From assembly GCA_041501225.1 (NCBI GenBank), contig JBGQNR010000005.1, positions 3,661-67,660 of the forward strand: a stretch of 64,000 bases of DNA, in the 5' to 3' direction. Every line of letters starts with the position of its first letter. The stretch's first letter is position 1. This DNA is from Acidobacteriota bacterium (GTDB lineage: Bacteria > Acidobacteriota > UBA6911). Below the pieces are notes generated by a model that saw nothing but the letters and a program-made list of their open reading frames with translations, searched no databases and had not been told where the DNA came from. Positions 32,366 to 60,246 of this stretch are shown here, piece after piece. Made by a program: the position numbers and the translations under genes.

Positions 32366-33907
32366 ATGCCAAAAGAGGGATCTTTGCCTGCCCAGGTGAG
32401 TCTCGAACAGAGTCTCGACGCATACGAGTACGTGATTTCGAAGTTCGGGTATGAACCGGTCATACGCCCTGGCAGGATTGAGCTCCTCGGGTGGTCTTTG
32501 GATTATGCCTGTGGTCCGGCCCTGGCCACCTTCATCGACCAGATCCTCATCCGGCGTTTGAACGATTTATCTCCGGACAACGACCAGCCTGTCATCCTCG
32601 ACTGCGGCGCCAACATCGGTTTCAGTGTGCTCCATTACAAGCGCTGTTTTCCCCGGGCAAAAATTGTCGCCTTTGAACCTGATCCGCAGTTCGCGCCGCT
32701 GTTGAGGAGCAACCTCGCCCGCAATGGAGCCACCGATGTGGAAGTCGTCGAAGCTGCGGCCTGGATCCGGCAAGGCGAAGCCCGCTGGCTGTGTGAGGGA
32801 ATCGACGGCAGCAAAATCATTGCAGAGGGGCCGGCGACGCCCAACACGGTCGTCGTCCGAACGGTTGATCTGGCCGACTACCTTTCCGGTACGGTGGACC
32901 TGCTAAAGCTGGACATCGAGGGGGCCGAATATACGGTGCTCGACCATCTGCGCGACCGACTGCAAAGGGTCAAGAATCTCTTGATCGAATGTCACCTTGA
33001 CCAGACCAATGTTGCGCAATTCGGGAGGATGCTGGGTATCCTGGTCGCGGCCGGATTCAAGACCAGCGTGAATTCCTTTGGCCCGTGGCGAGACCTGATC
33101 CGTCAGGAACCCGTTGGCCCGAATCATTGGGAGCAATATTTGCTCGTCGCGGCATGGCGCAATCCCATTCCGCAGGTTGTTTCGGAGAATCCCTTGCTCC
33201 CCTATACGGGCGCACAGCCCAGCCTGGAAATGCGCATGCTGCGCGCCCAAGCATCGAATCTGGGCCAGGAACTTCGGACGGCACAAGCCCGGCCGAACCA
33301 GTTCCTGGCATTGCTGCGCGCTTTCCTGGCCAGCGGCGGAGAGACCCTGCAAATCCGCCGGCTCGAGACCCGCTTCGAAAAGAGTGATGGCCGCTGTTGG
33401 TTTTTGAATATTCCAGATCTCGAATCCATCGCGGACGACGAACAAAACCCGACACGTTCCACCCTATTGCTTTTCGAGGATCAAAACCCGCTGGGTTCTC
33501 CACACAGCCTGCATAAGGAAATCGTCAAACAGGGCGGCGGCCTCTATTCGCACTGGAAATCCGTTCTTTACTTATCCACCTCCGATGGTTCCGATCCTAA
33601 TACCAATGGACGGAAATATACCATCGTATTCGTCGAGAAAGAGTCCGGTGAAGGACGCCCCATACTCCGGGAACGCCTTGAGGCGCGCGAGCATTTGCTC
33701 AATCAGCTTGACGCCACTCTCACCGGACGGCAGGCCGGCCTGATTGAGCGCGAAAACGGTCTGGCGCAGCGCAACTTGATCTTGGCTGAACACGAGGCCG
33801 ACCTGGTGAAGCGCGAGTCGATCCTGGAAGATCGATTGCGCGAATATGAGGCGCGCTTGTTGGTGCGCATCGGGGCTTTCATCCGCCGGCGTTTTCGTAC
33901 CAATTGA
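32366..33907 (+). CDS. FkbM-family methyltransferase fused to recurrent module (B-type), coiled coil and basic amphipathic tail
   Basis: FkbM core ILDCGANIGFSVLHY...IVAFEPDP...LLKLDIEGAEYTVLDHL. The module is aa 342-424 of the track ORF. A heptad-like region ~33665..33868 reads ERLEAREHLLNQLDATLTGRQAGLIERENGLAQRNLILAEHEADLVKRESILEDRLREYEARL, followed by the tail RIGAFIRRRFRTN. Confidence 0.8.
   Translation: MPKEGSLPAQVSLEQSLDAYEYVISKFGYEPVIRPGRIELLGWSLDYACGPALATFIDQILIRRLNDLSPDNDQPVILDCGANIGFSVLHYKRCFPRAKIVAFEPDPQFAPLLRSNLARNGATDVEVVEAAAWIRQGEARWLCEGIDGSKIIAEGPATPNTVVVRTVDLADYLSGTVDLLKLDIEGAEYTVLDHLRDRLQRVKNLLIECHLDQTNVAQFGRMLGILVAAGFKTSVNSFGPWRDLIRQEPVGPNHWEQYLLVAAWRNPIPQVVSENPLLPYTGAQPSLEMRMLRAQASNLGQELRTAQARPNQFLALLRAFLASGGETLQIRRLETRFEKSDGRCWFLNIPDLESIADDEQNPTRSTLLLFEDQNPLGSPHSLHKEIVKQGGGLYSHWKSVLYLSTSDGSDPNTNGRKYTIVFVEKESGEGRPILRERLEAREHLLNQLDATLTGRQAGLIERENGLAQRNLILAEHEADLVKRESILEDRLREYEARLLVRIGAFIRRRFRTN
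33383..33631 (+). other. recurrent ~82-aa module, B-type copy (in FkbM methyltransferase)
   Basis: SDGRCWFLNIPDLESIADDEQNPTRSTLLLFEDQNPLGSPHSLHKEIVKQGGGLYSHWKSVLYLSTSDGSDPNTNGRKYTIVF. Confidence 0.7.
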
Positions 33908-33929
33908 TAATCATGAAATATAGTGACGG

Positions 33930-34030
33930 AAATAAGATTCCCAGCCCCGAAGGGGCGGAAAGATAATAGCCCCGGGCGTGAGCCCGGGGTTGTGAGCAGA
34001 TGAGGAAGGAGCCCTGAAGGGGCGACACAT
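33930..34030. repeat. partial copy related to the right half of the 23310..23560 MITE (opposite orientation)
   Basis: ccccgaaggggcgg...agccccgggcgtgagcccgggg...gagccctgaaggggcgacaca parallels the reverse complement of 23440..23540 (ccccgaaggga...aggcgcaagccctggg...gagccctggaagggcgaaaca). Confidence 0.45.
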
Positions 34031-34126
34031 CCATCCTCGGAATATCATCACCATAATATCTGATTCTAAATAGTTCGACAATTTCCGTCGATCGTCAGAT
34101 GCGTCCCGGAGAGTAAGGAATCAGGA

Positions 34127-36055
34127 ATGTGCGGAATATGCGGAATCTTATATTTTGATCAAGCCCGGCACGCACCAGAGGGCCTGGTGCATCAAATGAC
34201 CCGCGTTCTCCGCCACCGCGGCCCCGATGATGCCGGCGCCTGGATTAAAAACAACGTCGGCCTTGGCCAGGCGCGCCTTTCCATCATCGATCTCAGCCCG
34301 CTCGGGCGCCAGCCGATGTCCAATGAAGACGGGACCGTGTGGATCACCCTGAACGGTGAAATCTACAACTATCCGGAGCTCCATGAAGAGCTGATCAAAA
34401 AAGGGCACACGTTTCACTCGCGGACCGATACTGAAACCGTCATTCATTTGTGGGAAGAGGAAGGCGAACGTTGTGTCGAGCGTTTGCGCGGGATGTTCGC
34501 CTTCGCGATCTGGGATGACAGGCAGCAGACTCTTTTCCTCGCGCGTGATCGCGAGGGCAAAAAGCCGCTGTTTTACGCGCTCCTGAAGGATCGCCTCCTC
34601 TTCGGCTCCGAGATCAAAGCCATTCTCCAGGATGCAGAATTCAAGCCGGAGCCGGACCTCGAGGCAATCCATCATTACCTCGCGTACCAGTCGGTCCCTT
34701 CGCCCTACTGCGCATTTAAGGGCATCCGAAAGCTGCCGCCTGCACATTCCCTCTTGATCAAGAACGGACACGGGGCGCCTCGCCGATACTGGAAGCTGTC
34801 ATATCGCAATAAGCTGACGGTGAATGGCGATGGCGACCTGACCAGCCTCCAGAACGAGATTATTGAACGGCTCCGCGAAGCGATTCGAATTCGCTTGATG
34901 AGCGATGTGCCGCTCGGCGCGTTTCTCTCCGGGGGGATTGACTCATCCATCATTGTCGCGTTGATGGCGGGATTGATGGATCAGCCGGTCAAAACTTTTT
35001 CCATCGGTTTCACGTCGGATGAATATGACGAACGGCCGTTTGCACGCATGGTGGCCGAGCGTTACGGCACCGATCACCATGAATTTGTGGTCACTCCGGA
35101 CGCCCAGGCCATTTTCCCGGAGCTCGTCTGGCATTACAACGAACCTTTCGCCGATTCATCTGCTATCCCGACCTACTATGTCTCGAAACTCGCGCGCGAG
35201 TATGTCACCGTTGTCTTGACCGGCGATGGCGGCGATGAAAACTTCGCCGGCTATCCGCGCTACCAGAACCAGGGCGAATATGCCCTGCAGCCCGCCTTTC
35301 CATCCCTGTTTTCGCGCTTTGCTCGCCCGGACCAGGTGTTGCGATCCTTTGTGTTCAAGAACGACTGGCGCCGCTCATTTCGCCGCCTCAAAGCGCTTGA
35401 CCAGAAGCGGTTGCTCTATTATCTCCGGATCACCCACTTTCACGAAAATTATCAGACGCAACTGTATACGCCTGAATTCAGACGCCAACTCGGCGACATC
35501 TGTACCGTGGACCTGATGCTGGATAAATATCGTGATTCCGACGCGCGCGACTTCCTGGATGCGACCCTCGATGTGGACCTCGGGCTGTACCTGCCCGACA
35601 CTTTGATGGCCAAGACCGACATTGCGGCGATGGCGCACGCGCTCGAGCTCCGCGCCCCGATGCTCGACCACCATTTTCTCGAGTTCGTTGCGCGCATCCC
35701 CGCGAATTTGAAATTGAAGGACGGCACCGAGAGCAAGTTCATCTTCAAGAAGGCGGTGGAGCCTTACCTGCCGAAGGAAGTAATCTATCGAAAGAAGATG
35801 GGATTTGGCGTGCCCATCGACCACTGGTTCCGCCACGAGTTGAAGGAGATGGCTTACGACACGCTCCTCGACGCGCGCGCGATCGGCCGCGGGTACTTCC
35901 GTCGGGACTACATCGAGAGCATACTCAACCGCCACCAGTCCGGCGAGACGTGGCAGTACCTGATCTGGAACCTGCTCATGCTCGAACTGTGGCATTTGAT
36001 GTTCATCGACCAGACTATGCCGGTTCCGGCGGAACACGCGTTAACCATCCCATGA
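34127..36055 (+). CDS. asparagine synthase (glutamine-hydrolysing)-family amidotransferase, copy 2
   Basis: MCGICGI nucleophile, RGPDD, RLSIIDLS, and the PP-loop GAFLSGGIDSS. Its stop overlaps the next start (ATGA at 36052). Confidence 0.85.
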   Translation: MCGICGILYFDQARHAPEGLVHQMTRVLRHRGPDDAGAWIKNNVGLGQARLSIIDLSPLGRQPMSNEDGTVWITLNGEIYNYPELHEELIKKGHTFHSRTDTETVIHLWEEEGERCVERLRGMFAFAIWDDRQQTLFLARDREGKKPLFYALLKDRLLFGSEIKAILQDAEFKPEPDLEAIHHYLAYQSVPSPYCAFKGIRKLPPAHSLLIKNGHGAPRRYWKLSYRNKLTVNGDGDLTSLQNEIIERLREAIRIRLMSDVPLGAFLSGGIDSSIIVALMAGLMDQPVKTFSIGFTSDEYDERPFARMVAERYGTDHHEFVVTPDAQAIFPELVWHYNEPFADSSAIPTYYVSKLAREYVTVVLTGDGGDENFAGYPRYQNQGEYALQPAFPSLFSRFARPDQVLRSFVFKNDWRRSFRRLKALDQKRLLYYLRITHFHENYQTQLYTPEFRRQLGDICTVDLMLDKYRDSDARDFLDATLDVDLGLYLPDTLMAKTDIAAMAHALELRAPMLDHHFLEFVARIPANLKLKDGTESKFIFKKAVEPYLPKEVIYRKKMGFGVPIDHWFRHELKEMAYDTLLDARAIGRGYFRRDYIESILNRHQSGETWQYLIWNLLMLELWHLMFIDQTMPVPAEHALTIP

Positions 36056-37167: not shown

Positions 37168-37257
37168 ACCGAGGAATTTTGCACTTGCAGGCAGGGAGAA
37201 TCCAGGTTTTAGCAAAAGCCGTGTTCTGAGACGGCTGTCAATTATGGGTGGGGCGTT

Positions 37258-37728
37258 ATGCCAAAACGACGGCTTGTTCATATCCGACACAACGGGGGGT
37301 ATGCCTATAGCGCTGTCACCCGGCGGCCAGGATTGAGTTCGCACCATCATCCTTCATCGGCATCAGTATTAGAGGATGACTTGTCCCTGCCGGGGCCAGC
37401 AAATGCATTACACGATGACATTCGCCATTTGGGTGGCGGCAGATATTCTTTCTGGCATGACGGCGTCTATTTCTCCACTTCGGACAACAGTGATCCACGC
37501 ATCAACGGAAAAACTTACGCTATTCTTTACACTTATGCCCTAGTCCCACGGATCGCCGCCCTGATCCACTATCCATGGCAGCGATGGGGAGTCCAAGTAC
37601 TAAGGCGCGCAACCTGGCTTTTCCGGGCTGACCGGCGGCAGCAGGCGCTCTGGGGGATATTCTATTGGGTGTGCTTTGCAATGGTATTGTCGCGCAAACG
37701 AAAAACGCGCGGCATAACTCTGGATTGA
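37258..37728 (+). CDS. small tail-anchored protein consisting of one recurrent module (A-type) plus C-terminal TM
   Basis: Module aa 11-92, then a hydrophobic ALWGIFYWVCFAMVL near the C-terminus followed by SRKRKTR. Confidence 0.6.
   Translation: MPKRRLVHIRHNGGYAYSAVTRRPGLSSHHHPSSASVLEDDLSLPGPANALHDDIRHLGGGRYSFWHDGVYFSTSDNSDPRINGKTYAILYTYALVPRIAALIHYPWQRWGVQVLRRATWLFRADRRQQALWGIFYWVCFAMVLSRKRKTRGITLD
37288..37533 (+). other. recurrent ~82-aa module, A-type copy (small tail-anchored protein)
   Basis: HNGGYAYSAVTRRPGLSSHHHPSSASVLEDDLSLPGPANALHDDIRHLGGGRYSFWHDGVYFSTSDNSDPRINGKTYAILYT. Confidence 0.7.
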
Positions 37729-38697: not shown

Positions 38698-38805
38698 TCT
38701 CACCAGTTTCCGCTCCGCGATGATATAATAGTATGATTTTTGTCCCCGAATCTGCGGGGAGTGTCAGTTTTGCTGCGGCGCATCGACAGGAGCTCGGAAA
38801 AGCCA

Positions 38806-39858
38806 ATGCATATGGATTCCACAAACCCGGTGTGCCTGGTTTTGAAGAGGGATTGGAGTCTCGAAACCGCAGACGAAATCCGGAGTATTGATTTCTTTGA
38901 TCCGCTGTTCGGCGATTACCGCAAAACCGTCAATCCGGCCAGACCGGACATCTGTGGCCATACGCTCGTATTTCCCTCGGCGGGAGAATACTACCTTCGG
39001 ATCAACGAGACCCGCTTTGCTAAAGTATTGGTGATTCCCGCGGAGGAATGCCTGTCGAGCAGCGTCCTGAGGGTTTTTGATTTCTGCATCGCCAACATGT
39101 GTGCAACGGGGAAGGACGAAGAGCGTTATGCCGCCGACCCTCTCGCGACCGTCGCGGACTGGTTTCGCAACCGATCGCCCCTTACGCTCTATTGTTCCTC
39201 GGCCCATGAAGTCTTCAGGACGATCCTGGTTAATGTGTTTGCCCTACCGACACGCCGCGTGATGTTGCCGGGAACAGGACGAATTAACCGAAAAGTATAC
39301 CGGGTTATCCACCATGTCTTGGAGGTGTACTTGCCGGACCTCGGCAAGTGGGTGCTTTTTGATCTGCCCAATCGCTTTGTAATCCGGTGGCTGGATGCTT
39401 TCCAGATCGTTGACTTTGTGCGGCAGAACACATTGCAGACGCCTCTGGGCACGGGATATGTCAAATCGGAGGCCCTCACTTCGCTGGACATATACAACGG
39501 CGGTGTAATATCTCTCTTGCCGAAAGGCTACGATGGTAATGGGGACTTGGGGCAGGGATCGACGGATCTGAGCGGCCTTCCGGTTTCCTATAATTGGGTC
39601 AATATCTTCAAGTATTACTACGGCGGGGTGGCCTACTTGGGTGCTGACTCCAGAGTTTGCGAATGTGAACCACCCAATTTCTGGCCCTCCTGTGTATTTG
39701 CATCCAGGCATACCGATCTGAAACTACATCAGGTCACATTGAAGTGGATCGAAGGGAATGGATGCCGGGTTCAGGTTGTATCCCAGGAAGAACTCCAGAG
39801 GCGGCTGAACGGCGCATTCCGCGAAACAGTCGCTGCAAAGTCCTGGCTCGAAAAATGA
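38806..39858 (+). CDS. transglutaminase-like (Cys-His-Asp) superfamily protein
   Basis: LTLYCSSAHEVFRTILVNVFALPTRRVML...VIHHVLEVYLPDLGKWVLFDLPN fits the transglutaminase-core spacing (C....GxPxRxV ... HxWxEVY...xW..xD). The ATG at 38806 has aggag upstream. Confidence 0.5.
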   Translation: MHMDSTNPVCLVLKRDWSLETADEIRSIDFFDPLFGDYRKTVNPARPDICGHTLVFPSAGEYYLRINETRFAKVLVIPAEECLSSSVLRVFDFCIANMCATGKDEERYAADPLATVADWFRNRSPLTLYCSSAHEVFRTILVNVFALPTRRVMLPGTGRINRKVYRVIHHVLEVYLPDLGKWVLFDLPNRFVIRWLDAFQIVDFVRQNTLQTPLGTGYVKSEALTSLDIYNGGVISLLPKGYDGNGDLGQGSTDLSGLPVSYNWVNIFKYYYGGVAYLGADSRVCECEPPNFWPSCVFASRHTDLKLHQVTLKWIEGNGCRVQVVSQEELQRRLNGAFRETVAAKSWLEK

Positions 39859-39945: not shown

Positions 39946-41130
39946 TCAGATTTCGTAACGGATGGAATAGGCCCTGCCGTTAGTGTTTGGATCGCTGTTG
40001 TCCGATGTGGAAAACAGCAATGCGTCATTCCAATGGCTGTATCGCCCATGACCGCCGCGGGAGATCCAATCATGCAGCGAATGAGCGTAGTCCAGCATCT
40101 GGCCATTCTCGAAGAGGCGCAGGGATGACTTCCTCTGATCGGAGACTGAATCGGCGATGGATTGGAGATGCGGCAGGGGAAAGGACCAGCACGAACCCGC
40201 CTGCCTTTGGAAGGGACCGGGCAGAGGTTCGGTCCTCCGATTCTTGAGTATGGCATCCCAGTAATTCCTTGCCGAAGCCGGTCTAAGGATGAATTCCGTA
40301 TTCCCCTCTCCCGTGTGCATGTCGAGCAGGTCGAGTTTGAGCCGTTCCGTGGCGAACCGGAGAAAATCGTACTCTTTGACAAATTCCATCGGCCACCCTC
40401 CCAGCCAATCCCGCATATCTGTCCAGATTTCCATGCCACGAGAAGCGATATAGGCCTTGGCTAGCCTGGGGAAGCCGATCAGATTTCGAAGGCAACGAAT
40501 CGGATTGGGGTGATGGACGTATGTCTTCCACATGTAGCGGTACTCCATCAGCGATTTTCCCCATCGTGAGGCTTGATTGTACTTTTTCTTGATCGACAGC
40601 CATTGCTCCGGGCTGGCCCCCCCCGAGAAGCTCCCGTTCTGATAGGAGGTATAGCTGTAGAGAGCCACAAAAAAAATGCCTTCCGGTTTCAATGGGATCC
40701 GGGCATTCTCTATGGCTTTCCACATGTCGCCCGTGTGATGCAGCACGCCCCAGGAATAAACGACGTCGGCCGGTGCCAGGGATTTCATGAAAGCGTCATC
40801 CAGCACCGAGCCCTGCAGGATGGTCCACTGGGGCGGATTGCCATGCATCTCCTTCAGGTAGCGCGAAGTGGCCACCGAATCGGGATCATAATCGAAGCTC
40901 AGGACGGAGGAGGCTCCCGACTGGAGAGCGGCCAGGGAATGCAACCCGCTGCCGCAGCCGATATCCAGGAAGGACATGTCCCTGAGATGCTCGCGGCGAA
41001 GGGTTCCTAGAAGCCTCGTCCTTGCGACTTCGAGCCGTTCCGGAGACAACTGGGATTGAATAAAGCGGCTCCAATTCTCGCCAAAACGATAACGCATCTC
41101 TTCATTCTGCATGCCGGGTTCCTCGATCAT
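39946..41130 (-). CDS. class I SAM-dependent methyltransferase with C-terminal recurrent module (B-type)
   Basis: FLDIGCGSGLHSLAALQSGA..VLSFDYDPDSV (motif I/II), GVLHHTGDMW, and DWLGGWPMEF. The last 85 aa are the module. The start is uncertain (41130 or 41112). Confidence 0.8.
   Translation of the reverse strand: MIEEPGMQNEEMRYRFGENWSRFIQSQLSPERLEVARTRLLGTLRREHLRDMSFLDIGCGSGLHSLAALQSGASSVLSFDYDPDSVATSRYLKEMHGNPPQWTILQGSVLDDAFMKSLAPADVVYSWGVLHHTGDMWKAIENARIPLKPEGIFFVALYSYTSYQNGSFSGGASPEQWLSIKKKYNQASRWGKSLMEYRYMWKTYVHHPNPIRCLRNLIGFPRLAKAYIASRGMEIWTDMRDWLGGWPMEFVKEYDFLRFATERLKLDLLDMHTGEGNTEFILRPASARNYWDAILKNRRTEPLPGPFQRQAGSCWSFPLPHLQSIADSVSDQRKSSLRLFENGQMLDYAHSLHDWISRGGHGRYSHWNDALLFSTSDNSDPNTNGRAYSIRYEI
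39949..40203 (-). other. recurrent ~82-aa module, B-type copy (C-terminus of methyltransferase)
   Basis: QAGSCWSFPLPHLQSIADSVSDQRKSSLRLFENGQMLDYAHSLHDWISRGGHGRYSHWNDALLFSTSDNSDPNTNGRAYSIRYEI*. Confidence 0.7.
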
Positions 41131-41225
41131 CCGCAGCACGGATGATGGATGCAATCGGCCCGAACCGCACCGTATCTGCCATCGGCCGGCAGCTTGGCCC
41201 TCGTGATGGGCGCGCGGAGAGCGGA

Positions 41226-47477: not shown

Positions 47478-47486
47478 ACTCGATGA

Positions 47487-49453: not shown

Positions 49454-49454
49454 C

Positions 49455-50408: not shown

Positions 50409-50427
50409 ATTGCATTCGCCTTATTCA

Positions 50428-51519: not shown

Positions 51520-51643
51520 AATTCCTTTCCTTTGCACGCGGTACTCGTGATGGTACATGTGCGTTTGATACCTGACACTGCTGTCCGGGGTATGAGCGAT
51601 CTACGGGATCCCACCGGCGACCAAAGACTCCCTGATACGGAAC

Positions 51644-52363
51644 TCAATCGCAAGCCAAAAACCCGGGAGCCATGCCATAGGTATCCGGCGTGCCGATATC
51701 AAGAAACCGGACGAAACTCCGATATCCATAAAATGCCCGTCCGATCCACGAGGGAAATATGTCGCGTTCGATCGACAGGGGAACATGAGCCGGCATGGCT
51801 TCGATCCAGGATCTTGCAATCAAGTACACGCCGGCATTAATCCATCCCGGTCCGCCCTCGTTCTTTTCGCGGAATGACTGGATCGCTCCCACAGCATCCA
51901 CTAGGACTTGCCCGTAGCGGCTCACATCGTCAACCTCCGCCAGGAGCAAGGAAGCGCCCGCGTTCCGCTCGAGATGCCATGCCCAGAAGGCGACGAAATC
52001 CGCTTTGGCGATCGAATCGCCGTTCATGACCAGAACGTATCGGGATTGGATCCTCGCCAGTGCATGACGCAGAGCTCCTGCGGTTCCCAATGGGGTAGGC
52101 TCTTGGGAATACAACAACTGCCGGCCAGCATATGTGTCCCCCAGCACGGCGCGCACCTGATCTCCGCGATACCCGGTACAGAGTACAATGCGGGTAATCC
52201 CGGCTGTGGCTACCTGGTCCAGAAGATAAGTCAGAAACGGCTTTTGATTTACCTCTGCGAGCACCTTGGGGCGGTCCGCGACCGCCGAGCGCAAACGAGT
52301 TCCCAATCCGCCCACCAGAATTACCGCCGTCGCGTCCGACAAATTTTCCGCAGTTTTACACAT
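51644..52363 (-). CDS. sugar-1-phosphate nucleotidyltransferase (HddC/GMP-like)
   Basis: AVILVGGLGTRLRSAVADRPKVLAEV..KPFL is the N-terminal G-x-G-T-R-L signature. There is an 8-nt overlap with the upstream gene. Confidence 0.8.
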   Translation of the reverse strand: MCKTAENLSDATAVILVGGLGTRLRSAVADRPKVLAEVNQKPFLTYLLDQVATAGITRIVLCTGYRGDQVRAVLGDTYAGRQLLYSQEPTPLGTAGALRHALARIQSRYVLVMNGDSIAKADFVAFWAWHLERNAGASLLLAEVDDVSRYGQVLVDAVGAIQSFREKNEGGPGWINAGVYLIARSWIEAMPAHVPLSIERDIFPSWIGRAFYGYRSFVRFLDIGTPDTYGMAPGFLACD

Positions 52364-53297
52364 TTTTGAACGGCGCCCGCCCCAGCATCCGGTACCCCTT
52401 GAGGAGTTCTTGAATCCCGACATCCAACGAACGGCGCGCCTGGAAGCCAGCTTCCTTCAATCGCCGATTGGACACGATGTAATCGCGTTTGTCGGGATCA
52501 CTTCCCACGGGAGCGAAGTGTATATAAAATCGGGGCACGTATTCCTTGACTTTCAAAGCGAGCTCTTCTTTCGAGAGATTGGCCTCGTCGAGCCCCAGAT
52601 TGTAAGGGCGACCGACCATTTCTGAAGAATGCGCAATGCAATGGAGGAAGCAGTCTGCCACGTCACGAATGTGGATGTAGTTGCGTTTGGCGTCTTTTTC
52701 GAAAATGACGATGTATCCATCGGTCACGGATGCGTAGACAAAATGATTTACCAACAGGTCGAGCCTCATCCGGGGAGACATTCCGAAAACCGTGGCCAGT
52801 CGCAGCGTCACGGTGTTCGGACTGTCCAATAGTTCTTTTTCTGCCTGGACTTTGGTTTGGCCGTAAAGCGAGATGGGCTCGAGCGAGGTATCCTCCGTGC
52901 AAAACCTGTCACCCGATTGGGTGCCGTAGCCGCTATTGGTGTTCGGGTATATGACCAGCTGTTGCGGGCTACGCAATCGATTGACGAGCCGAACCGCTTC
53001 GAGGTTGATCGATCGCGCCATCCAGGGATCTCGATCGCAGGCCGGTGCGCCGACGAGGGCCGCCAAGGGGATGATGACATCGGCATTCTTGATGCACCGG
53101 CTCATCAAAGATTCGTCGCGGGCATCTCCGAATACAAAATCAAAACCCGGCTGCGCACAATGTTGGAAAAGCGTATGCTGCGAGTAGTAGAGGTTGTCGA
53201 CCACCGTGACCTGATGGCCTGCCTGGAGCAGGTGTTCGCATAAAATGGAACCCAGGTATCCTGCGCCGCCTGTGATCAAAACTCGCAAATCCATCAT
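52356..53297 (-). CDS. NAD-dependent sugar epimerase/dehydratase (SDR)
   Basis: VLITGGAGYLGSILCEHLL and the catalytic YxxxK LYGQTKVQAE. Confidence 0.8.
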   Translation of the reverse strand: MMDLRVLITGGAGYLGSILCEHLLQAGHQVTVVDNLYYSQHTLFQHCAQPGFDFVFGDARDESLMSRCIKNADVIIPLAALVGAPACDRDPWMARSINLEAVRLVNRLRSPQQLVIYPNTNSGYGTQSGDRFCTEDTSLEPISLYGQTKVQAEKELLDSPNTVTLRLATVFGMSPRMRLDLLVNHFVYASVTDGYIVIFEKDAKRNYIHIRDVADCFLHCIAHSSEMVGRPYNLGLDEANLSKEELALKVKEYVPRFYIHFAPVGSDPDKRDYIVSNRRLKEAGFQARRSLDVGIQELLKGYRMLGRAPFKNV

Positions 53298-53475: not shown

Positions 53476-56301
53476 TCAATGGCTTCCAGCCCCTCTTAGC
53501 CCGATCCCTGGGCGACAAGAGAGGCGGTGGTTGATTCGCAATGCTATCTCCCAAAGCAGGAGAAACGCCGCGACGACGGCCAGAAACTCGGAGGCTTTGA
53601 CCATCCTGGGGATCGGCGCGGCGAAAAGCGCCGTAAGTCCGACGTGGGCCAGATGAGCGAGGATCATGACCGCTGCGGCATAGCCGCACCGCCCACGCAG
53701 CCAAAGCGCAGCGAGGAAGCAAAGACCATAGAGAAAATACGGATCGAGGAAACCACAACGGAACCTGGCTCCGCTAGGCTGGGTAAGCCCCAATACCCAG
53801 AACCTGATGCCAAAACTCAGATAATCCAGCCGCCGGGTGGCCAGGATTGGAGTGGCAATCTTCATCAAGAATTCGGCCGGCTTCGGGTGGCCGGCGATCA
53901 TGGGCAGCGCCACCTTATATAGATTGTTGTTGATGTAGTACACGTACCGGCAGTATTCATCCCCTTTACACATCTCATCTACGCTCCGGTGCTCCATCTC
54001 TCGGCGTGCGAGCGCAGACTGCAACCATTGACGCGACTCCTCATCCGGCATCAACCCGACATCCTGCGGCTGAGCGACCTGCAGGGCATAGGTGATACGG
54101 TACTGGTACTGAAGATTCTCCTGGGCCGCCCCTAATTGGCCGGTCTTGATCATGCCGTAAATATCCGGGATGGTTGCCAACGCGATCAGCGGCAGGATGG
54201 AGAGCAGGGCCCAGCGCCAGTAGGTTCTCCAATTGACAAACAACGCCCAAAGAATCATGGCGACCAGAAACAGGAACGTATAACCGGCGGCCTGGCGAGT
54301 AAGATAAATGGCGCCGCACAGCAGACCGGCGAGGGGCAGCATGCTCTTCCGTGCATTCCAAAGGAACAGGAGGAATACGGACATCAGAAGCAACACCAGG
54401 GTCTGCACCAGGTCTTCGGTCAGGATCAGATTCAATTCCTGTGCGGTAAAGAAAAGAAAGTCATATAAAAAAAGGAAGAGAATCGCGGGGAGAGGTGACC
54501 TCAGAAGGGTCATCAAGAACCAGCAGCTGACGAGGCCTGCCGCGAGCAACAAAAAAATCTGCACGCGTCCCACCCGAAGCAAGGGATCGCCAGGGTCGGT
54601 AATCGCGATATTCACCGGATGGACCTTGGCCCACGCCGCGGGATCAAAACCGCTCCCGAGCGTGACCAGCTTGATGAACCATGGGTACAAAGGCTGCCGT
54701 GGAGAACCCACATAATACCCGAAATAGTAACTTGCAGAATCGGGTGCCGTGCAACAGGCGTCCCACGCGGAAAGGGGCGCCTCCGTGCGACACCACTGCG
54801 CTGGGTTCGGGGCGACGGCGGTCAGAAGATAGTAGGCGACAACGAGCGCAGCAAAATGAGGTGCAAGGTACTTCTTCGGACAGAGTGCCCCGAATTTTTT
54901 TCGCAACAGCCATGCCAGCAGTACATTCAGCGGGACGATAACCCGCCAAAGAGTTCCATGCAGCAAGGACAGGGAAGAGAAGGCACGGGATAAAGCGATG
55001 ACGACTATCGGAAATGCTGCGCACAACACGACCGCCCATACCACTTTGGGAGTCCATAGGGACTCTAGCGAAATCCGTCGCTTCCTCATCAGCAAAACTG
55101 TAGAGGAGGTCGCCAAACCACAAAACAAAACCGTCAGAGCGTACAGGACATAAGCGGGCAGCCTGCCTACCATGCGCGGGTAACGCATCTCATACCGACG
55201 ACCGTTCATCCGAGGGTCGGCATTATCCGAGGCCGAAAAATAAACACACTCGTGCCAGAACGAATAGCGCCCTTTTCCGAGGGTACGAATGTCGTCGTGC
55301 AAGGCATTGGCCGGGCCTGCCAGGGGTGTGCCGTCCTCCAATAATTGTGCCGGGGAGGGGCCCTTGTGGGAACTCAACAGGGGATCATGGGTAGGAGCCA
55401 TGTAGGCGAAGCCATGTTCCGCCTGGATGCCGGCGATGACGCCCGAACCCCAATAGGGAGTCAATCTCCCCAAGCGATTCAGATAAATCAGGAGGGATAA
55501 ACTCAACAGAAGCAAAGAAGCCGGCCAAAGTATCCGCGGAGAGATTGTTACTTGCTCTGCCAATTGCAGGAATGCCTTCGGCACGAACGCCAAAATGGCT
55601 GCCACTCGGGCACGCCGATTCGCAGGGGACGCAACACGTTCGGGCCAGAGGCGGCGCAAACCCTCCCTTTTCCTCCATGCGATGCGCAGGGCGAGGAGCG
55701 CGACCCCAAAGACGGCGATGAATGTGATGCCGTACAGTATGCGAGCCGAACCATCATCCAGAGAGCGCGGGAAGGAGATTTCGTACTTTCTGCCATTGGT
55801 GCGGGGGTCCGTATTGTCGGAGGTGGCGAAATAGACGAAATCGTGCCAAAAGGAGTAGCGGCCCCGGCCCGACCTCCGTATGTCGTCATGCAGAGAATTC
55901 CCGCCTCCCGGCAGAGGGGACCCGTTCTCGAGGATTCGGGCCGGGGAAGGTCTCTCATGCGAACTCAATTCCGGCAAATGCGTGGGCGCCACATAGGCGA
56001 AACCGCGCTCCGGCTGAAAGCTATCCAATGTGGTCTGTTTCCACAGAACGGTCAACTTTCCCACGTGGCTCTCATACACCACGTAGGATGTCGTGCTTAA
56101 GAGGGCCACCAACAATACGTAACCCACGAACAGTGCCGTCCGCCAACGCTTCCCAATTACCAATGCAACCTCATTCTTGATTCCGAATCGACGGCATGGC
56201 CTACTTCCATGCAGCACAGCTGCCAAATCCGTGCCGGGAAGTGCCTCAGGCAGGGCCTGCCCCTGAGACGCCGGTGCCAGGTATTTATGGAACAGAACCA
56301 A
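53476..56301 (-). CDS. large polytopic membrane protein carrying two recurrent modules (A-type); possible GT-C-like enzyme
   Basis: 941-aa ORF. One TM precedes module 1, 2-3 TMs separate the two modules, and 12 or more hydrophobic segments follow module 2. There is no ATG near the 5' end: the track start is TTG, and a TTG at 56163 with gagg upstream is an alternative. Confidence 0.75.
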   Translation of the reverse strand: MVLFHKYLAPASQGQALPEALPGTDLAAVLHGSRPCRRFGIKNEVALVIGKRWRTALFVGYVLLVALLSTTSYVVYESHVGKLTVLWKQTTLDSFQPERGFAYVAPTHLPELSSHERPSPARILENGSPLPGGGNSLHDDIRRSGRGRYSFWHDFVYFATSDNTDPRTNGRKYEISFPRSLDDGSARILYGITFIAVFGVALLALRIAWRKREGLRRLWPERVASPANRRARVAAILAFVPKAFLQLAEQVTISPRILWPASLLLLSLSLLIYLNRLGRLTPYWGSGVIAGIQAEHGFAYMAPTHDPLLSSHKGPSPAQLLEDGTPLAGPANALHDDIRTLGKGRYSFWHECVYFSASDNADPRMNGRRYEMRYPRMVGRLPAYVLYALTVLFCGLATSSTVLLMRKRRISLESLWTPKVVWAVVLCAAFPIVVIALSRAFSSLSLLHGTLWRVIVPLNVLLAWLLRKKFGALCPKKYLAPHFAALVVAYYLLTAVAPNPAQWCRTEAPLSAWDACCTAPDSASYYFGYYVGSPRQPLYPWFIKLVTLGSGFDPAAWAKVHPVNIAITDPGDPLLRVGRVQIFLLLAAGLVSCWFLMTLLRSPLPAILFLFLYDFLFFTAQELNLILTEDLVQTLVLLLMSVFLLFLWNARKSMLPLAGLLCGAIYLTRQAAGYTFLFLVAMILWALFVNWRTYWRWALLSILPLIALATIPDIYGMIKTGQLGAAQENLQYQYRITYALQVAQPQDVGLMPDEESRQWLQSALARREMEHRSVDEMCKGDEYCRYVYYINNNLYKVALPMIAGHPKPAEFLMKIATPILATRRLDYLSFGIRFWVLGLTQPSGARFRCGFLDPYFLYGLCFLAALWLRGRCGYAAAVMILAHLAHVGLTALFAAPIPRMVKASEFLAVVAAFLLLWEIALRINHRLSCRPGIGLRGAGSH
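55177..55422 (-). other. recurrent ~82-aa module, A-type copy 2 of the membrane protein
   Basis: AEHGFAYMAPTHDPLLSSHKGPSPAQLLEDGTPLAGPANALHDDIRTLGKGRYSFWHECVYFSASDNADPRMNGRRYEMRYP. Confidence 0.7.
55768..56013 (-). other. recurrent ~82-aa module, A-type copy 1 of the membrane protein
   Basis: PERGFAYVAPTHLPELSSHERPSPARILENGSPLPGGGNSLHDDIRRSGRGRYSFWHDFVYFATSDNTDPRTNGRKYEISFP. Confidence 0.7.
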
Positions 56302-56435: not shown

Positions 56436-57647
56436 TTACGGCCGTTCCACGGTAAACCGACCGCCGATATGTTTCAGATGTGCGGGATCCAGGTTCTGGT
56501 ATCTAGAACCGTTAGCTTGGCGAAGCCGTGGTATAAAATCGGACAAGTACGCGTCGTCGGCAGTACAACTTGATGTGAATTCACGTACACGGAATCCCGC
56601 GAGCTGAAACATCTCATGATAATCCGAAGGGCGATATCGATTGCCGCATTCGCCATGTTTCTCGATAAACTGCTTGGCGAATTCCTGATCGCCCATAAGC
56701 AAAAACTCGAGGGGTTTGGAGAAATCATTGTGATCGCGAAAATCTACTTGATGATAGCCTAGGGCGGCGCGCTTAGAAACGCGCGCCATTTGACGAAATG
56801 CGGAGAGTGGATCAAACAAATGCTCCAGTACCGCAATGGAAAATATGATGTCCATAGTCGCATCAGGTATGCCTTCAAGTTTCTCCAATGACGTGGCGAA
56901 GCACTGAATGCTCAGGGGATCATACCCTTTTTGTCCCAGAATTTTATCTAGCGGGGCCAGATCGACTGATGAAAACGTAGCCCTAATCCGCTCGCGAAGA
57001 AGTGAGTAGAATCTTGGATGATAGGCCTCGTCCCAAGGCGCCAGAAAGCGGTCGCTCACCGTCACGTGGGCACCCATGCATGCCATCAGGAGTGGGCTGC
57101 CGAAATTGATGCCTGGCCCAATCTCGAGCACGGTCTTCCCAACTAAGGTGCGGCTTCCTTCGGGGAGCCATCGAACTAAGTTCTGGCCTATTTCCATCGC
57201 GTATGCGACATCCTTGTCTATAGCTTCGGGAGAAAAATTGCGCATGGATAGGTTTACCGGCTTATTTTCGGTAGGAAGAGAATTGTGAGTCAGACTATTT
57301 TTCATCTCACGGGCCTTCCGGAAACACCATGCAATAGGGGTCAATAGCTTCGGCGGGAAGGCGATCTCATACCTCCGACCATTTGTGCGCGGGTCGGTAT
57401 TATCCGAAGCCGAAAAATAAACCGCATCGTGCCAAAAGGAGAATCGCCCTTCCCCAAGGTTGCGAATGTTGTCGTGCAAGTCATTTCCGGGTCCAGAAAG
57501 CGGAACACCATCTTCCAACACATGCGCCGGGGATGGCACCCGGTGTGAGCTCAATTCGGGTCGACAGGTCCCTGCAATATAGGCAAACCCCCTCTCGGGC
57601 CTGATTTCCGCCAACAGGGCATGTCGCCAAGGCCCGTATCGCTTCAT
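56436..57647 (-). CDS. recurrent module (A-type, N-terminal) fused to class I SAM-dependent methyltransferase
   Basis: Module aa 17-98, then VLEIGPGINFGSPLLMACMGAHVTVSD (motif I) and IIFSIAVLEHLFDP. Confidence 0.8.
   Translation of the reverse strand: MKRYGPWRHALLAEIRPERGFAYIAGTCRPELSSHRVPSPAHVLEDGVPLSGPGNDLHDNIRNLGEGRFSFWHDAVYFSASDNTDPRTNGRRYEIAFPPKLLTPIAWCFRKAREMKNSLTHNSLPTENKPVNLSMRNFSPEAIDKDVAYAMEIGQNLVRWLPEGSRTLVGKTVLEIGPGINFGSPLLMACMGAHVTVSDRFLAPWDEAYHPRFYSLLRERIRATFSSVDLAPLDKILGQKGYDPLSIQCFATSLEKLEGIPDATMDIIFSIAVLEHLFDPLSAFRQMARVSKRAALGYHQVDFRDHNDFSKPLEFLLMGDQEFAKQFIEKHGECGNRYRPSDYHEMFQLAGFRVREFTSSCTADDAYLSDFIPRLRQANGSRYQNLDPAHLKHIGGRFTVERP
57354..57599 (-). other. recurrent ~82-aa module, A-type copy (N-terminus of methyltransferase)
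   Basis: PERGFAYIAGTCRPELSSHRVPSPAHVLEDGVPLSGPGNDLHDNIRNLGEGRFSFWHDAVYFSASDNTDPRTNGRRYEIAFP. Confidence 0.7.
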
Positions 57648-57697
57648 GGCTTTTCTCTCAGGCTGCGCGTTAGACTGCCTCCACTCAACGGAAACAA

Positions 57698-57805: not shown

Positions 57806-57828
57806 GCCCGGCTCATGTACCTTCGAAA

Positions 57829-58533
57829 TCATGCCTGAACATCGTAGGGGCAAACAAAATCTTGGGGATTTATTTTCTGATGCGCGACCATGTACAACAC
57901 GTTCGGCACGGAAAGCTGGGCTCTCAGGTGGACGAAGATTTTTTCCCGGATATCCTCGTGTTTCAGTCCGTCAAAAGTGATGTACATTTTCGGTCGGGAC
58001 CCACCGGCCTCATCCAGCGCATCGCGCACAAAGTGAAATGCCTCGGCTAATAATCGATACCCATTCGCTTCCGCAACGCCTCTGAATATCATCGGGTTAA
58101 AATTGTAGTAACCATGCTCAAACCATGAAATCGGCGCAACATGAATGATCGTACCGCCGACGCACGTCAACTCGTGAAGATTGCGAAACGCCGTCCCAAT
58201 ATCAAAAATATGCTCTATGGTTCCTGCATCCAGGACCGTCCTGGCGGCTGCAATCCACGGCTTCGGCAGCGGCTGCCCAAAATCAAGAGCCAGATCGGCC
58301 TTCCCGTTGAGATCGCAATCGCGATAATCCGCAACGGCATAGCGGTCCAGGAACAGACTCCGCGCGGTCATTTCCCTGGCCAGATGTCTATGGCCATTTT
58401 GTGCGGCAAAATCAAGGATCTTATCCTTCGTCTCGTGAATCTCCTGAGACCCCAGGACGAAAAGCGGAGACTGGATAGCTTTTTGTGCGTAGCACAGGTC
58501 ATAAAACGGAAGATGAGAGAAACCTATTCCCAT
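57829..58533 (-). CDS. methyltransferase-like protein immediately downstream of wzt
   Basis: VLDAGTIEHIFD and GGTIIHVAPISW resemble the post-motif-I/II region of class I methyltransferases. The start codon abuts the wzt stop (TGAATG). No clear GxGxG motif was seen, so the assignment is tentative. Confidence 0.55.
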   Translation of the reverse strand: MGIGFSHLPFYDLCYAQKAIQSPLFVLGSQEIHETKDKILDFAAQNGHRHLAREMTARSLFLDRYAVADYRDCDLNGKADLALDFGQPLPKPWIAAARTVLDAGTIEHIFDIGTAFRNLHELTCVGGTIIHVAPISWFEHGYYNFNPMIFRGVAEANGYRLLAEAFHFVRDALDEAGGSRPKMYITFDGLKHEDIREKIFVHLRAQLSVPNVLYMVAHQKINPQDFVCPYDVQA

Positions 58534-60246
58534 TCACTTCTCCGGCTGAAGCCCTGCCTGGAAGTCAGCCCGGGATGATGCCAGCAGACGCTCTTCAATG
58601 GGCTGCGCATTCAAATCTACGATGGAAGTGGTAAAAATCTCATTGTTCCTGCCAACTTCAAACTGCAATCCATCATATTGGAGGTCGTACTGGACATTAT
58701 CCTCGGCATAAGGATCGGCGGCTGCAGAGGTCAGGAAGTATATCTCATTGGTGAGCCACATGGTCACCTTCATGGCGGCTTCCACAAGGTCTCCCTTATA
58801 TTGCTTCCGGATCGTGGATTTTTGAAGTCGTGTGCTCGTCCCGAACATGTCCACGCCTTTGCGGTCTCGTATCACGAAGCCGAAAACCGTTCCTTCCACA
58901 TCCTCATAATACAGCACCCGCATAAACAGGGTACAATGCGCGCCCGACGTCAATATTACGGCAGGATTTCCGTCCTCATCGAGGATTCCGGATTCAAGGA
59001 TCTCGGCCTTGCCGTTCCCCATGCGCGCCAGTCGAGGGCTGGACAATTCCATCGGTTGGGATCTCCCTAATCGGTCCAGCGCGCGTCGGCGCAGAGTCTC
59101 TCTATCCGGATCCTGGATCATCCCCGGAGATGGCTGGGAAATGGGACGTACAACCTCACGCCGAAGACTATAAACGCGGCCATTAGATCTTGGATCGCTG
59201 TTGTCGCTGGTTGAAAAGAGCAGCGCTTTTTCCCAGTGGGAATATCCTCCTCTGCCATGTTTGCGGATCAGGTCATGCGTGTAATGAGCCGGGCGCAGTG
59301 GCTTGTCATCTTCATACAGCACAAAACGGGATCGCTGCGGATTCTCTGACGAATCGCTATGTACTGCATGGCCGGTCAGGTCGATCCACCAGGCATGGCC
59401 GCCCTCATGCTTGATCTTGCCTGCATCCAGGATAATTTCGGATTCCCCCTCCAGGGCTTCTTCCACTGCAGGAGCCGTTATTGAGGTTACTCTTTTCTCT
59501 CCCGCATCGCTGGCGAAGAGCATTTTGTAATACACCTTGCTGATGCGCTGGGGCTCGCCCTGATCGGCAATCTGCCCGCCCTCTAATAGGACGGCATGGT
59601 CACAGAAGGTGCTGATGGTATTGCTGTCGTGCGAAACCAGCAGGATCGTCCGGCCGACATTTCTGAACTCTTCGATCTTGCCGAAGGACTTGCGCTGGAA
59701 TTTGGCGTCCCCGACCGACAAGGCTTCGTCGATGATCAGGATGTCGGGATCGACGCATACCGCGGTGCTGAAGGTCAACCGGGCCTGCATACCCGTGGAA
59801 TAGGTCTTGAAGGGCTGGTCAATAAAGTCCTCGAGCTCGCTGAACCGGATGATCCAATCCATTTTGTCCAGGATTTCCTCGCGGCTCAATCCGACCATAA
59901 GCCCGCCGAGGTAGATGTTTTCCCGGCCGCTGTATTCGCTGTGAAAGCCGGTGCCGAGTTCCAGAATGGAAGAAACCCGGCCCTGGACCGCAACTCCACC
60001 GGCAGTGTAATCGAGCGTTCCGGTGATAATTTTGAGCAGCGTGCTCTTCCCCGCGCCGTTGCGCCCCATGATGCCCACAACCTGCCCCCGGCCCACTTCG
60101 AGGGACACGTTTTTCAGAGCCCAGAAAGGCTTGTATCTCGGCTTGCCGGTACACAGTTCCCAGAACATGTCCGCCGGCCTGGCGTAGATCTTGAACATCT
60201 TGGAGAGACTGGAAACGCGGATCGCAATCCCGTCGGCACCATTCAT
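58534..60246 (-). CDS. wzt: O-antigen/glycan ABC exporter ATP-binding protein Wzt with inserted recurrent module (B-type) and C-terminal Wzt_C-like domain
   Basis: Walker A GRNGAGKSTLLK, signature YSTGMQARL, Walker B ILIIDEALSVGD, and H-loop LVSHD. The module is at 59155..59406, and a beta-rich Wzt_C-like region lies at ~58645..59028 (GKAEILESGILDEDGNP...SGAHCTLFMRVLY...). The ATG at 60246 overlaps the wzm stop (ATGA). Confidence 0.85.
   Translation of the reverse strand: MNGADGIAIRVSSLSKMFKIYARPADMFWELCTGKPRYKPFWALKNVSLEVGRGQVVGIMGRNGAGKSTLLKIITGTLDYTAGGVAVQGRVSSILELGTGFHSEYSGRENIYLGGLMVGLSREEILDKMDWIIRFSELEDFIDQPFKTYSTGMQARLTFSTAVCVDPDILIIDEALSVGDAKFQRKSFGKIEEFRNVGRTILLVSHDSNTISTFCDHAVLLEGGQIADQGEPQRISKVYYKMLFASDAGEKRVTSITAPAVEEALEGESEIILDAGKIKHEGGHAWWIDLTGHAVHSDSSENPQRSRFVLYEDDKPLRPAHYTHDLIRKHGRGGYSHWEKALLFSTSDNSDPRSNGRVYSLRREVVRPISQPSPGMIQDPDRETLRRRALDRLGRSQPMELSSPRLARMGNGKAEILESGILDEDGNPAVILTSGAHCTLFMRVLYYEDVEGTVFGFVIRDRKGVDMFGTSTRLQKSTIRKQYKGDLVEAAMKVTMWLTNEIYFLTSAAADPYAEDNVQYDLQYDGLQFEVGRNNEIFTTSIVDLNAQPIEERLLASSRADFQAGLQPEK
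59155..59406 (-). other. recurrent ~82-aa module, B-type copy (inside Wzt)
   Basis: EGGHAWWIDLTGHAVHSDSSENPQRSRFVLYEDDKPLRPAHYTHDLIRKHGRGGYSHWEKALLFSTSDNSDPRSNGRVYSLRRE. Confidence 0.7.

Follow-up and report, generated by a model that had tools for sequence, protein, structure and literature searches.

An unnamed module of ~82 residues present seven times in six proteins of one Wzm/Wzt glycan locus

Polymer-binding domains on the enzymes and exporters of polysaccharide assembly provide the closest comparison for the locus described here. Wzt_C is a cytoplasmic carbohydrate-binding module (CBM; PMC9445017). In Citrobacter youngae, the GT-C glycosyltransferase ORF12 (GT136) possesses a periplasmic CBM that binds the unmodified O-antigen backbone, and its ABC transporter O-antigen locus also contains a chain terminator and a CBM-bearing Wzt (PMC11127046). 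AftD, another GT-C enzyme, has three CBMs, which are periplasmic and bind the acceptor polymer (bioRxiv 10.1101/2019.12.22.885152), and WbdD, the kinase/methyltransferase of E. coli O9a, is a chain terminator with a coiled-coil ruler (PMC3482155). The present work concerns a 64-kb window (the whole stretch of 64,000 nucleotides that was analysed, from contig JBGQNR010000005.1 of an Acidobacteriota bacterium), in which six proteins of one Wzm/Wzt locus together carry seven copies of a module of ~82 amino acid residues (aa). The module is a real domain that lacks a name in Pfam-A, NCBIfam, PDB sequences or PDB folds, and it is fused almost exclusively to enzymes acting on sugar polymers.

Wzt_C (PF14524) resembles the module in being a non-catalytic domain on the Wzm/Wzt ATPase that is thought to read the polymer, and the module is situated directly upstream of it in the same polypeptide. 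The two bear no sequence relation, however, and differ in size (~140 aa for Wzt_C, ~82 aa for the module); unlike Wzt_C, the module is also carried by methyltransferases, GT-C enzymes and exported enzymes, is predicted on both membrane faces, and occurs mostly in loci without wzm/wzt. Extra extracytoplasmic domains that bind acceptor polysaccharide are likewise present on ORF12/GT136, mycobacterial EmbA/B/C and AftD. In contrast to these enzymes, the GT-C protein of the window has its extra domains N-terminal to the core, each within its own transmembrane (TM) hairpin (T-D-T-T-D-T), and the module is much smaller than the known beta-sandwich CBMs, has no fold match in the PDB and is reused on cytoplasmic enzymes. 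CAZy-type CBMs are alike in the signal-module-linker-PL1 layout found in Pedobacter and in the tandem copies of secreted proteins, but neither sequence nor fold assigns the module to an existing CBM family, and it is mostly found on cytoplasmic biosynthetic enzymes, which is unusual for CBMs. As with WbdD, methyltransferases are encoded in a Wzm/Wzt locus with a CBM-bearing Wzt, and the tail of the FkbM methyltransferase recalls the coiled-coil ruler; WbdD, however, has no such module, and the terminator role of the window methyltransferases is putative, by analogy. The recognition element (PqqD-like RRE) of ribosomally synthesized and post-translationally modified peptides (RiPPs) follows the same logic of one small recognition domain on many tailoring enzymes. 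This is an analogy only, as the predicted folds differ, no PqqD match was obtained and the module loci are glycan loci. An accessory binding module on glycan enzymes is of a familiar kind; what stands out is the large unannotated family, its unusual predicted deployment on two sides of the membrane and its unexpected tie to an AsnB-like amidotransferase.

The module, its predicted fold and its family

The module copies were delineated in an initial annotation made without database searches, and the translations of all seven, in six open reading frames (ORFs), proved exact. Four copies are termed A-type. One (37288..37533, plus strand) makes up the bulk of a 156-aa ORF (37258-37728); another (57354..57599, minus strand) forms the N-terminus of a 403-aa class I S-adenosylmethionine (SAM)-dependent methyltransferase (ORF 56436-57647), which has no TM segment and is thus taken as cytoplasmic; and two, copy 1 (55768..56013) and copy 2 (55177..55422), both on the minus strand, belong to the 941-aa GT-C protein (ORF 53476-56301) and are predicted to be periplasmic. 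The three B-type copies are located at aa ~342-424 of an FkbM methyltransferase (33383..33631, plus strand, in ORF 32360-33907), at the extreme C-terminus of a 427-aa class I SAM methyltransferase (39949..40203, minus strand, in ORF 39946-41229), and between the ABC ATPase and Wzt_C of the cytoplasmic Wzt (59155..59406, minus strand, in ORF 58534-60489).

A MAFFT alignment of the seven copies contains 17 invariant columns at 61% mean column identity. The invariant columns include E, H, G-x-G, S-x-W and S-D-x-x-D-P-x-x-N-G-x-x-Y, and the residues are mostly polar or aromatic (E, H, R, W, D, N, D, N, Y). A hidden Markov model (HMM) built from this alignment, searched with filters off in six frames of the window, gives exactly seven matches with domain E values of 1e-33 to 1e-42, which are inflated by the fact that the matched copies themselves trained the model; the next-best match has E=0.7. 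Comparison of one A-type with one B-type copy by BLASTP gives 45% identity over 64 aa (E=3e-16 for a single comparison), and therefore both types are homologous, in line with the single shared pattern initially perceived. The hand-counted identity of 59 of 82 positions between the copies at 57354 and 55768 also agrees with the alignment (72%).

We also note that a His residue flanks the invariant Trp in both types, before it in B-type (S-H-W, i-1) and after it in A-type (S-F-W-H, i+1). On the predicted strand the two positions share one face, a sign that the His may be functionally retained. Among homologues the A-type is enriched in TM-flanked copies (53/73). The use of the two types as compartment markers was considered and rejected, as the B-type is also TM-flanked (65 copies) and 13 A-type copies occur in TM-less proteins.

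The initial view that the domain is unnamed is upheld by every resource searched. Scanning of the six hosts against Pfam-A (24,736 models) and NCBIfam (18,950 models) at E<=1 placed no family over the module; Wzt_C was found only at aa 489-625 of Wzt, apart from the module, and was absent from the other five host proteins. None of 120 listed single-module homologues has a precomputed Pfam domain, and the two of them that NCBI annotates (P0056 and P0075) are named "hypothetical protein". The module profile retrieved only noise from all PDB chain sequences, the best match being a cyclodextrin glucanotransferase (E=0.22), with an antibody chain also returned. A full-text literature search for motif strings (STSDNSDP, SDNSDP and others) found no paper.

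The structure was predicted with AlphaFold2 for the 93-residue C-terminal segment of the 427-aa methyltransferase (39949-40227, with 8 residues added upstream), using 127 aligned sequences. The segment folds on its own in the model, with a predicted local distance difference test (pLDDT) score of 95.8 and a predicted template modelling score (pTM) of 0.87. The model is mostly beta, combining two short helices with five or six short strands, and S-T-S-D-N-S-D-P-x-T-N-G-R is located in a long loop that is ordered; this conserved loop (consensus S-x-S-D-N-x-D-P-x-x-N-G-[RK]-x-Y) is rigid in the model. The structural comparison proposed at the outset was carried out, and Foldseek with this confident model gave 0 matches in the PDB at E<=1e-3 (best E=0.32, TM-score <=0.42). 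Neither a Pfam CBM match nor a CBM at a meaningful Foldseek score in the PDB was obtained. Like members of the CBM class, the module is a discrete, non-catalytic predicted fold that varies in position and copy number on carbohydrate-active enzymes.

The family is large. A first homologue search retrieved 569 database proteins at E<=1e-3 and listed only proteins of <150 aa, probably a bias of the collection; architectures were taken from an unbiased, filter-free HMMER search of 1.84 billion representative proteins. This search found 4,126 clusters (50% identity) at E<=1e-3 and 3,071 at E<=1e-10, with up to six copies per protein. A scan of GTDB with one genome per species and a restrictive peptide pattern confirmed 482 places, in Planctomycetota, Desulfobacterota, Acidobacteriota, Nitrospirota, Chloroflexota, Gemmatimonadota and Victivallales, among others, and also in Alphaproteobacteria (Azospirillum, Bradyrhizobium, Magnetospirillum) and Bacteroidota (Pedobacter).

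Foldseek against predicted viral structures (BFVD) returned five strong matches (A0A3G5ADE5, A0A3G5A2W3, A0A3G5AEI9, A0A3G5AAL9 and A0A3G5A4X5) with E values of 7e-11 to 8e-8, TM-scores of 0.77-0.90 and 30-42% identity. All five come from soil giant-virus bins (Hyperionvirus, Harvfovirus) and may be either genuinely viral or bacterial contaminants. The partners of the module there are a GT8-like transferase, a radical SAM enzyme, an AsnB-like amidotransferase and a class I methyltransferase. The module is also encoded on 14 contigs of the IMG/VR viral catalogue (L078-L091), which may be prophage or misbinned sequence, in proteins of 124 to 593 aa, mostly small and with the module C-terminal; neither an AsnB-like gene nor wzm/wzt was found near the module genes on these 14 contigs. 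A tblastn search of plasmids gave a single match, an SGNH/GDSL protein in a glycan/asnB context on a Solidesulfovibrio plasmid, which NCBI annotation names for its SGNH domain only.

Module hosts and their predicted side of the membrane

The 941-aa polytopic host (53476..56301, minus strand) is a GT-C glycosyltransferase as judged by profile and model comparison, with an ArnT/Emb-like core from aa ~480. A profile of this protein and 29 homologues matches ArnT (5ezm) with E=2.4e-4, and D521, which is nearly invariant (alignment A5) and located in the first core loop, aligns with the Asp of PDEGRY in the first periplasmic loop of ArnT. Foldseek with the AlphaFold2 model of the whole protein (pLDDT 80.5) retrieved mainly GT-C proteins, namely EmbB/EmbA, ArnT, ALG9, AglB, PglB and Pmt4, with probabilities up to 0.99 but E values of only 3.5e-3 to 0.1 and low global TM-scores. 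Family membership would imply a polyprenyl-phosphate sugar donor and periplasmic catalysis, and a small GT2 (42644-43351) could make this donor.

The AlphaFold2 model places six TM helices before the GT-C core, whose own TM1 spans aa 480-496. Module 1 is inserted between TM1 (aa 42-79) and TM2 (aa 183-216), and module 2 between TM3 (aa 255-276) and TM4 (aa 380-407); TM5 (aa 418-440) and TM6 (aa 442-470) complete the N-terminal region. It is established that GT-C cores begin in the cytoplasm and that the loop after the first helix is outside (restated in PMC11127046). With six helices ahead of core TM1 and this core orientation, both modules are predicted to lie outside. The positive-inside rule agrees with the periplasmic placement: two loops without a module, 206-256 (12 K/R vs 3 D/E, disordered in the model) and 400-419 (5 K/R vs 1 D/E), are strongly basic, a further basic stretch, RKKFGALCPKKY, connects TM6 to core TM1, and short K/R-rich loops alternate with those that hold a module. 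Across homologues, the mean number of K/R is 2.4 on the far side of the module-preceding helix and 1.3 on the module side.

No TM segment is present in any of the three methyltransferase hosts, and the Wzt copy is located between two cytoplasmic domains. Within one locus the module is thus predicted on both membrane faces, periplasmic in the GT-C protein and cytoplasmic in Wzt and the methyltransferases. Similar combinations are found elsewhere. The Anaerolineales locus L015 encodes a T-D-T-T-D-T-GT-C protein together with four soluble module proteins, one of which is Wzt + module, and polytopic and soluble hosts occur together in L026 and L043. The initial annotation had regarded the cytoplasmic face as the probable place of the module and had itself named a split between periplasmic membrane-protein copies and cytoplasmic enzyme-fused copies as an argument against a single shared role; such a split is what the prediction gives. 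The cytoplasmic-face proposal also conflicts with homologues that carry lipoprotein or Sec signals or are fused to an exported PL1 lyase, sulfatase, galactose oxidase with Big_7, or PKD.

Host contexts were examined by Pfam and NCBIfam scans, which bore out the FkbM protein, the two class I methyltransferases, Wzt and the 941-aa protein as initially described. The FkbM host consists of the FkbM domain (aa 81-234), the module (aa 342-424) and a ~90-aa helical tail. This tail (aa ~430-515; 33650-33904, plus strand) is charged and heptad-like, with a weak NCBIfam match to the coiled-coil protein FlbB (E=6e-4). In Wzt, ABC_tran (aa 125-257) is followed by the module (aa ~362-445) and Wzt_C (aa 489-625). 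The module is at the extreme C-terminus of the 427-aa methyltransferase and N-terminal in the 403-aa methyltransferase. The 156-aa protein comprises little beyond the module and one C-terminal hydrophobic stretch of 16 residues, below the hydropathy threshold of 19 residues, so that its tail anchor, given as such in the initial annotation, is only probable. Its module may lie on either side of the membrane, since small proteins of this kind show little positive-inside bias.

Partners and neighbours of the module

A genome sample of 75 loci with 104 module-bearing ORFs was scanned for partners. The commonest partner is a class I methyltransferase (28/104), and further partners include FkbM, Methyltransf_24/TylF and CmcI-type methyltransferases, radical SAM enzymes with or without SPASM, GDSL/SGNH, sulfotransferase, TupA-like ATP-grasp, MptE-like, GT61 and Pectate_lyase_4. 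Fusion to Wzt (ABC_tran + Wzt_C + module) occurs in five cases, and the architecture with the module between the nucleotide-binding domain and Wzt_C recurs in other phyla. Multi-copy representatives add GT4, GT2, BNR, sulfatase and DUF4838 (DUF4838 + 5 modules), as well as a protein with galactose oxidase, Big_7 x7 and 4 modules; a PKD context was also found. About one third of the multi-copy representatives are polytopic, with a repeated TM-module-TM unit followed by many TM helices. A second membrane architecture was observed in Bacteroidota and Gemmatimonadota (L051, L067, L075), in which 11-13 TM helices precede a single C-terminal module; it differs from the (TM-module-TM)n-GT-C type of the window. 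Overall, the module may be N-terminal, internal or C-terminal, in 1 to 6 tandem copies, and the most numerous form is a protein of 100-150 aa with one module and an N-terminal anchor, lipoprotein signal or Sec signal.

In Pedobacter (~17 loci), a protein of ~467 aa is composed of a lipoprotein signal (…FFSNC), the module, a linker rich in Thr, Ser, Ala and Pro, and a PL1 pectate lyase. In the sole Pedobacter locus scanned in full (L038), the lyase gene (9785-11188) is situated mid-operon, on the same strand as genes for polysaccharide biosynthesis, in the order Wzy_C, DegT, Bac_transf, GT4, AsnB-like, GT4, epimerase, lyase, GT4; PhyH is also encoded. No wzm/wzt was found in this stretch and the operon is Wzy-type. 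Polymer-trimming enzymes occupy such a position in other exopolysaccharide operons. By analogy, the exported PL1 lyase is expected to cut the polymer of its own locus, with the module in the position of a classical CBM. The name "pectate lyase" given by JGI to some single-module proteins was rejected, as these have no lyase domain; the name has probably spread from fusions of the Pedobacter type.

Module genes are often clustered, with two to five module proteins encoded within 20 kb in 32/75 loci. Among the three nearest non-module ORFs of each locus, GT4 enzymes (21/133) and methyltransferases (14/133) lead, and Asn_synthase, Wzt, ABC2_membrane, DegT, GT2, TylF and radical SAM follow. The non-random placement near glycan loci anticipated at the outset is therefore borne out, neighbours and partners being overwhelmingly glycan-assembly genes. 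In 15/75 loci both wzm and wzt are encoded no more than 10 kb away, five times with the module on Wzt itself; we estimate this proximity to be well above chance, given the few such pairs per genome, an estimate made without control loci. The AsnB-like amidotransferase is a much stronger neighbour of module genes than wzm/wzt (50/75 vs 15/75). A homologue of the AsnB-like protein of the window (34127-36055) is encoded within 10 kb in these 50 loci, at a median distance of 2 kb, and many of the 25 loci without such a gene are short contigs. The best model for the AsnB-like proteins is TIGR03108 (XrtA/PEP-CTERM exopolysaccharide (EPS) amidotransferase) with 640 bits, below its cut-off of 817; the lasso cyclase model gives 267 bits against a cut-off of 525. 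AsnB-like and module sequences are also joined directly: in Bradyrhizobium (L027) an AsnB-like domain, the module and GT4 constitute one polypeptide of 1297 aa, and in L029 the AsnB-like match falls inside a module-bearing ORF.

The window itself has the features of the ABC transporter-dependent (Wzm/Wzt) pathway, with an ABC-2 permease and a Wzt_C ATPase near glycosyltransferase and NDP-sugar genes. It holds a methylation-rich, ABC transporter-dependent glycan locus, and a periplasmic glycosylation step after export is probable. From ~62.8 kb downwards, the minus strand encodes a GT4-like protein, Wzm (60243..61271; PF01061 on the matching gene), its partner Wzt with the module (58534..60489), a 234-aa protein, the 403-aa methyltransferase with the module, and the GT-C protein with two modules. 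A nucleotide-sugar block follows, with an epimerase/dehydratase, a nucleotidyltransferase, a GHMP kinase, a thiamine-diphosphate E1 alpha/beta pair, two more epimerases and an aldo-keto reductase; the last part, to ~41 kb, contains a Methyltransf_24 enzyme, a 326-aa protein, the small GT2, a GT4 and the 427-aa methyltransferase with the module. The plus strand from ~32.4 kb encodes the FkbM protein with the module, the EPS-type AsnB-like glutamine amidotransferase (34127..36055), which carries no module itself, a GT4, the 156-aa module protein, a class I methyltransferase and a 372-aa protein.

Exact copies of the proteins are present in a JGI metagenome (3300053059) and on an NCBI/Logan contig. 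Several genes of the locus merit separate mention. The longest ORFs of wzt (651 aa) and of the GT-C gene (941 aa) begin at TTG. Gene calls on the matching metagenome contig are shorter (570 and 895 aa) and the 941-aa model has pLDDT below 50 over its N-terminal ~47 residues, so that the true starts are probably downstream. The sugar-nucleotide block (46533-53297, minus strand) is an unusual mix, with a transketolase-like E1 alpha/beta pair and three epimerase/dehydratases in total, and suggests a modified or branched sugar. The 234-aa ORF between wzt and the 403-aa methyltransferase (57829-58533, minus strand) has no Pfam family. Its homologue in L006 (6564-7775; E=2e-69) overlaps wzt, continues downstream and is fused to a module, and its homologue in L024 (E=1e-62) is directly downstream of wzt; the motif LDAGTIEHIFD looks methyltransferase-like. 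ORFs 38740-39858 (plus strand, 372 aa) and 43394-44374 (minus strand, 326 aa) have neither a Pfam family nor a homologue in the 75 related loci.

Possible functions of the module

We tentatively consider the module to be an autonomous, non-catalytic polymer-binding accessory domain that putatively holds enzymes and exporter to the polysaccharide of the locus on both membrane faces, and would put the probability at about 0.45. The glycan-recognition option, one of several contacts suggested by the initial annotation, has thus become the leading one, the partners being glycan enzymes. The module would bind the locus polysaccharide, or a chemical feature common to such polymers, and thereby keep the enzyme near its polymeric substrate. 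Before and during export, the three cytoplasmic methyltransferases and the Wzt ATPase would use it on the undecaprenyl-linked chain; after export, the two periplasmic GT-C copies would hold the same chain while the GT-C enzyme modifies it. A glycan would be the ligand, and all copies of one locus would read the same polymer. Polymer binding accounts for the range of partners, the tandem copies, the occurrence on two faces and the several module proteins per locus; two to five of these in 32/75 loci are as expected if each enzyme on one polymer carries the same handle. The invariant polar and aromatic residues are like those of sugar-binding sites and were counted in its favour. Several points weigh on the other side. 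The polymers presumably differ between phyla while the polar residues stay the same, which would fit better with one common ligand or a structural role than with diverse glycan epitopes. No known CBM or lectin fold was matched by Foldseek in the PDB (best E=0.32). Wzt already possesses Wzt_C as a CBM, and a second binding domain needs a reason. Most matches consist of a single module and a membrane anchor, for which a pure substrate-tethering role is not obvious. Finally, the periplasmic placement of the GT-C copies comes from homology, helix counting and the positive-inside rule.

A wider hypothesis, possible though doubtful, is that the module reads one chemical feature in a widespread class of polysaccharides, those assembled by loci with an EPS-type AsnB-like amidotransferase, e.g., a uronic-acid carboxylate, amide or ester. 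It draws on the AsnB-like genes in 50/75 loci, the AsnB-module fusions in bacteria and Hyperionvirus, the fusions to PL1 pectate lyase and to a GT8 annotated as galacturonosyltransferase-like, and the invariant polar residues; a feature of the uronic-acid type is a guess from the AsnB-like, PL1 and GT8 links. The same reader would be carried by tailoring methyltransferases, radical SAM enzymes, sulfotransferases, Wzt, the periplasmic GT-C enzyme and a housekeeping PL1 lyase. It would represent a glycan counterpart of the RiPP recognition element, acting on both membrane faces and borrowed by giant viruses.

Other explanations account for part of these observations. The near-invariance of the polar residues across phyla could also mean one universal ligand, in which case the module would read the membrane surface or else the polyprenyl-(pyro)phosphate carrier and place enzymes at the lipid-linked intermediate on either face. 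Many copies are wired between two TM helices by linkers of ~5-10 residues and must lie on the membrane surface, undecaprenyl-linked intermediates are present on both faces, and all host enzymes of the window act at the membrane. We regard carrier recognition as unlikely nonetheless, as long linkers join the module to secreted or surface enzymes that never meet a lipid carrier (PL1 lyase, galactose oxidase + Big_7, PKD), TM-less proteins hold arrays of as many as six copies, and homologues occur in giant-virus bins. The same conserved residues could instead reflect a domain with no ligand of its own, serving structure, oligomerisation or metal-dependent stability and spread by domain shuffling. 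Together with the His/Glu/Asp set, the conserved D/N-rich loop could provide a site for a structural metal, the His beside the invariant Trp points to the same strand face at i-1 (B-type) or i+1 (A-type), and no fold match to a known binding family was found. A purely structural role appears improbable in view of the strong and specific bias toward glycan-tailoring enzymes and an AsnB-like neighbour (50/75 loci), the abundance of free-standing anchored single modules, and repeated independent fusion at many positions and copy numbers, which is typical of functional binding modules.

The initial annotation favoured a single cytoplasmic-face docking unit, homotypic or directed to Wzm/Wzt, that gathers chain-modifying or chain-terminating enzymes at the exporter. 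Several module proteins do share a locus here and in 32/75 others, Wzt itself is module-bearing in at least five other loci, and the abundant anchored single-module proteins could serve as membrane receptors for soluble module enzymes; in these, K/R residues are weakly biased toward the module side of the anchor (2.9 vs 1.6 on the other side). With the GT-C copies predicted in the periplasm and the Wzt and methyltransferase copies in the cytoplasm, however, the seven copies cannot form one complex. Moreover, 60/75 loci, the Wzy-type Pedobacter operon among them, lack wzm/wzt within 10 kb, the contexts of exported lipoprotein, lyase, sulfatase and Ig repeats do not fit, and the giant-virus homologues have no Wzm/Wzt context; docking to the exporter is quite improbable in this light. 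A RiPP-like peptide modification system, in which the module provides substrate recognition for an AsnB-like cyclase, radical SAM/SPASM enzymes, methyltransferases and an ABC exporter, would share its partner set with the module (AsnB-like, radical SAM + SPASM, methyltransferase, sulfotransferase, ATP-grasp, ABC transporter), and one recognition domain per tailoring enzyme mirrors the RiPP recognition elements. We find it hardly credible, since the loci hold NDP-sugar pathways, GT4/GT2, Bac_transf, Wzy_C, GT-C and Wzm/Wzt with Wzt_C, the AsnB-like protein scores far better on TIGR03108 than on the lasso cyclase model (640 vs 267 bits, the latter under its cut-off), and the predicted fold is mostly beta, not a PqqD-like winged helix, with no PqqD match in the host scans.

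Whatever its ligand, the module exposes an annotation gap, as a very common family of accessory domains (at least ~4,000 clusters at 50% identity) is invisible to Pfam and NCBIfam. Polymer binding by the module would extend the concept of CBMs and Wzt_C while current models are not overturned. Cultured carriers exist in Pedobacter, Azospirillum and Bradyrhizobium. The tie to EPS-type AsnB-like amidotransferases points to an uncharacterised class of polymer. If polymer binding is true, the module would flag those enzymes of a cluster that act on the finished or growing polymer and not on nucleotide sugars, and the same handle on cytoplasmic tailoring enzymes, exporter and periplasmic GT-C enzyme suggests how consecutive steps could simply be held to a single chain on either side of the membrane.

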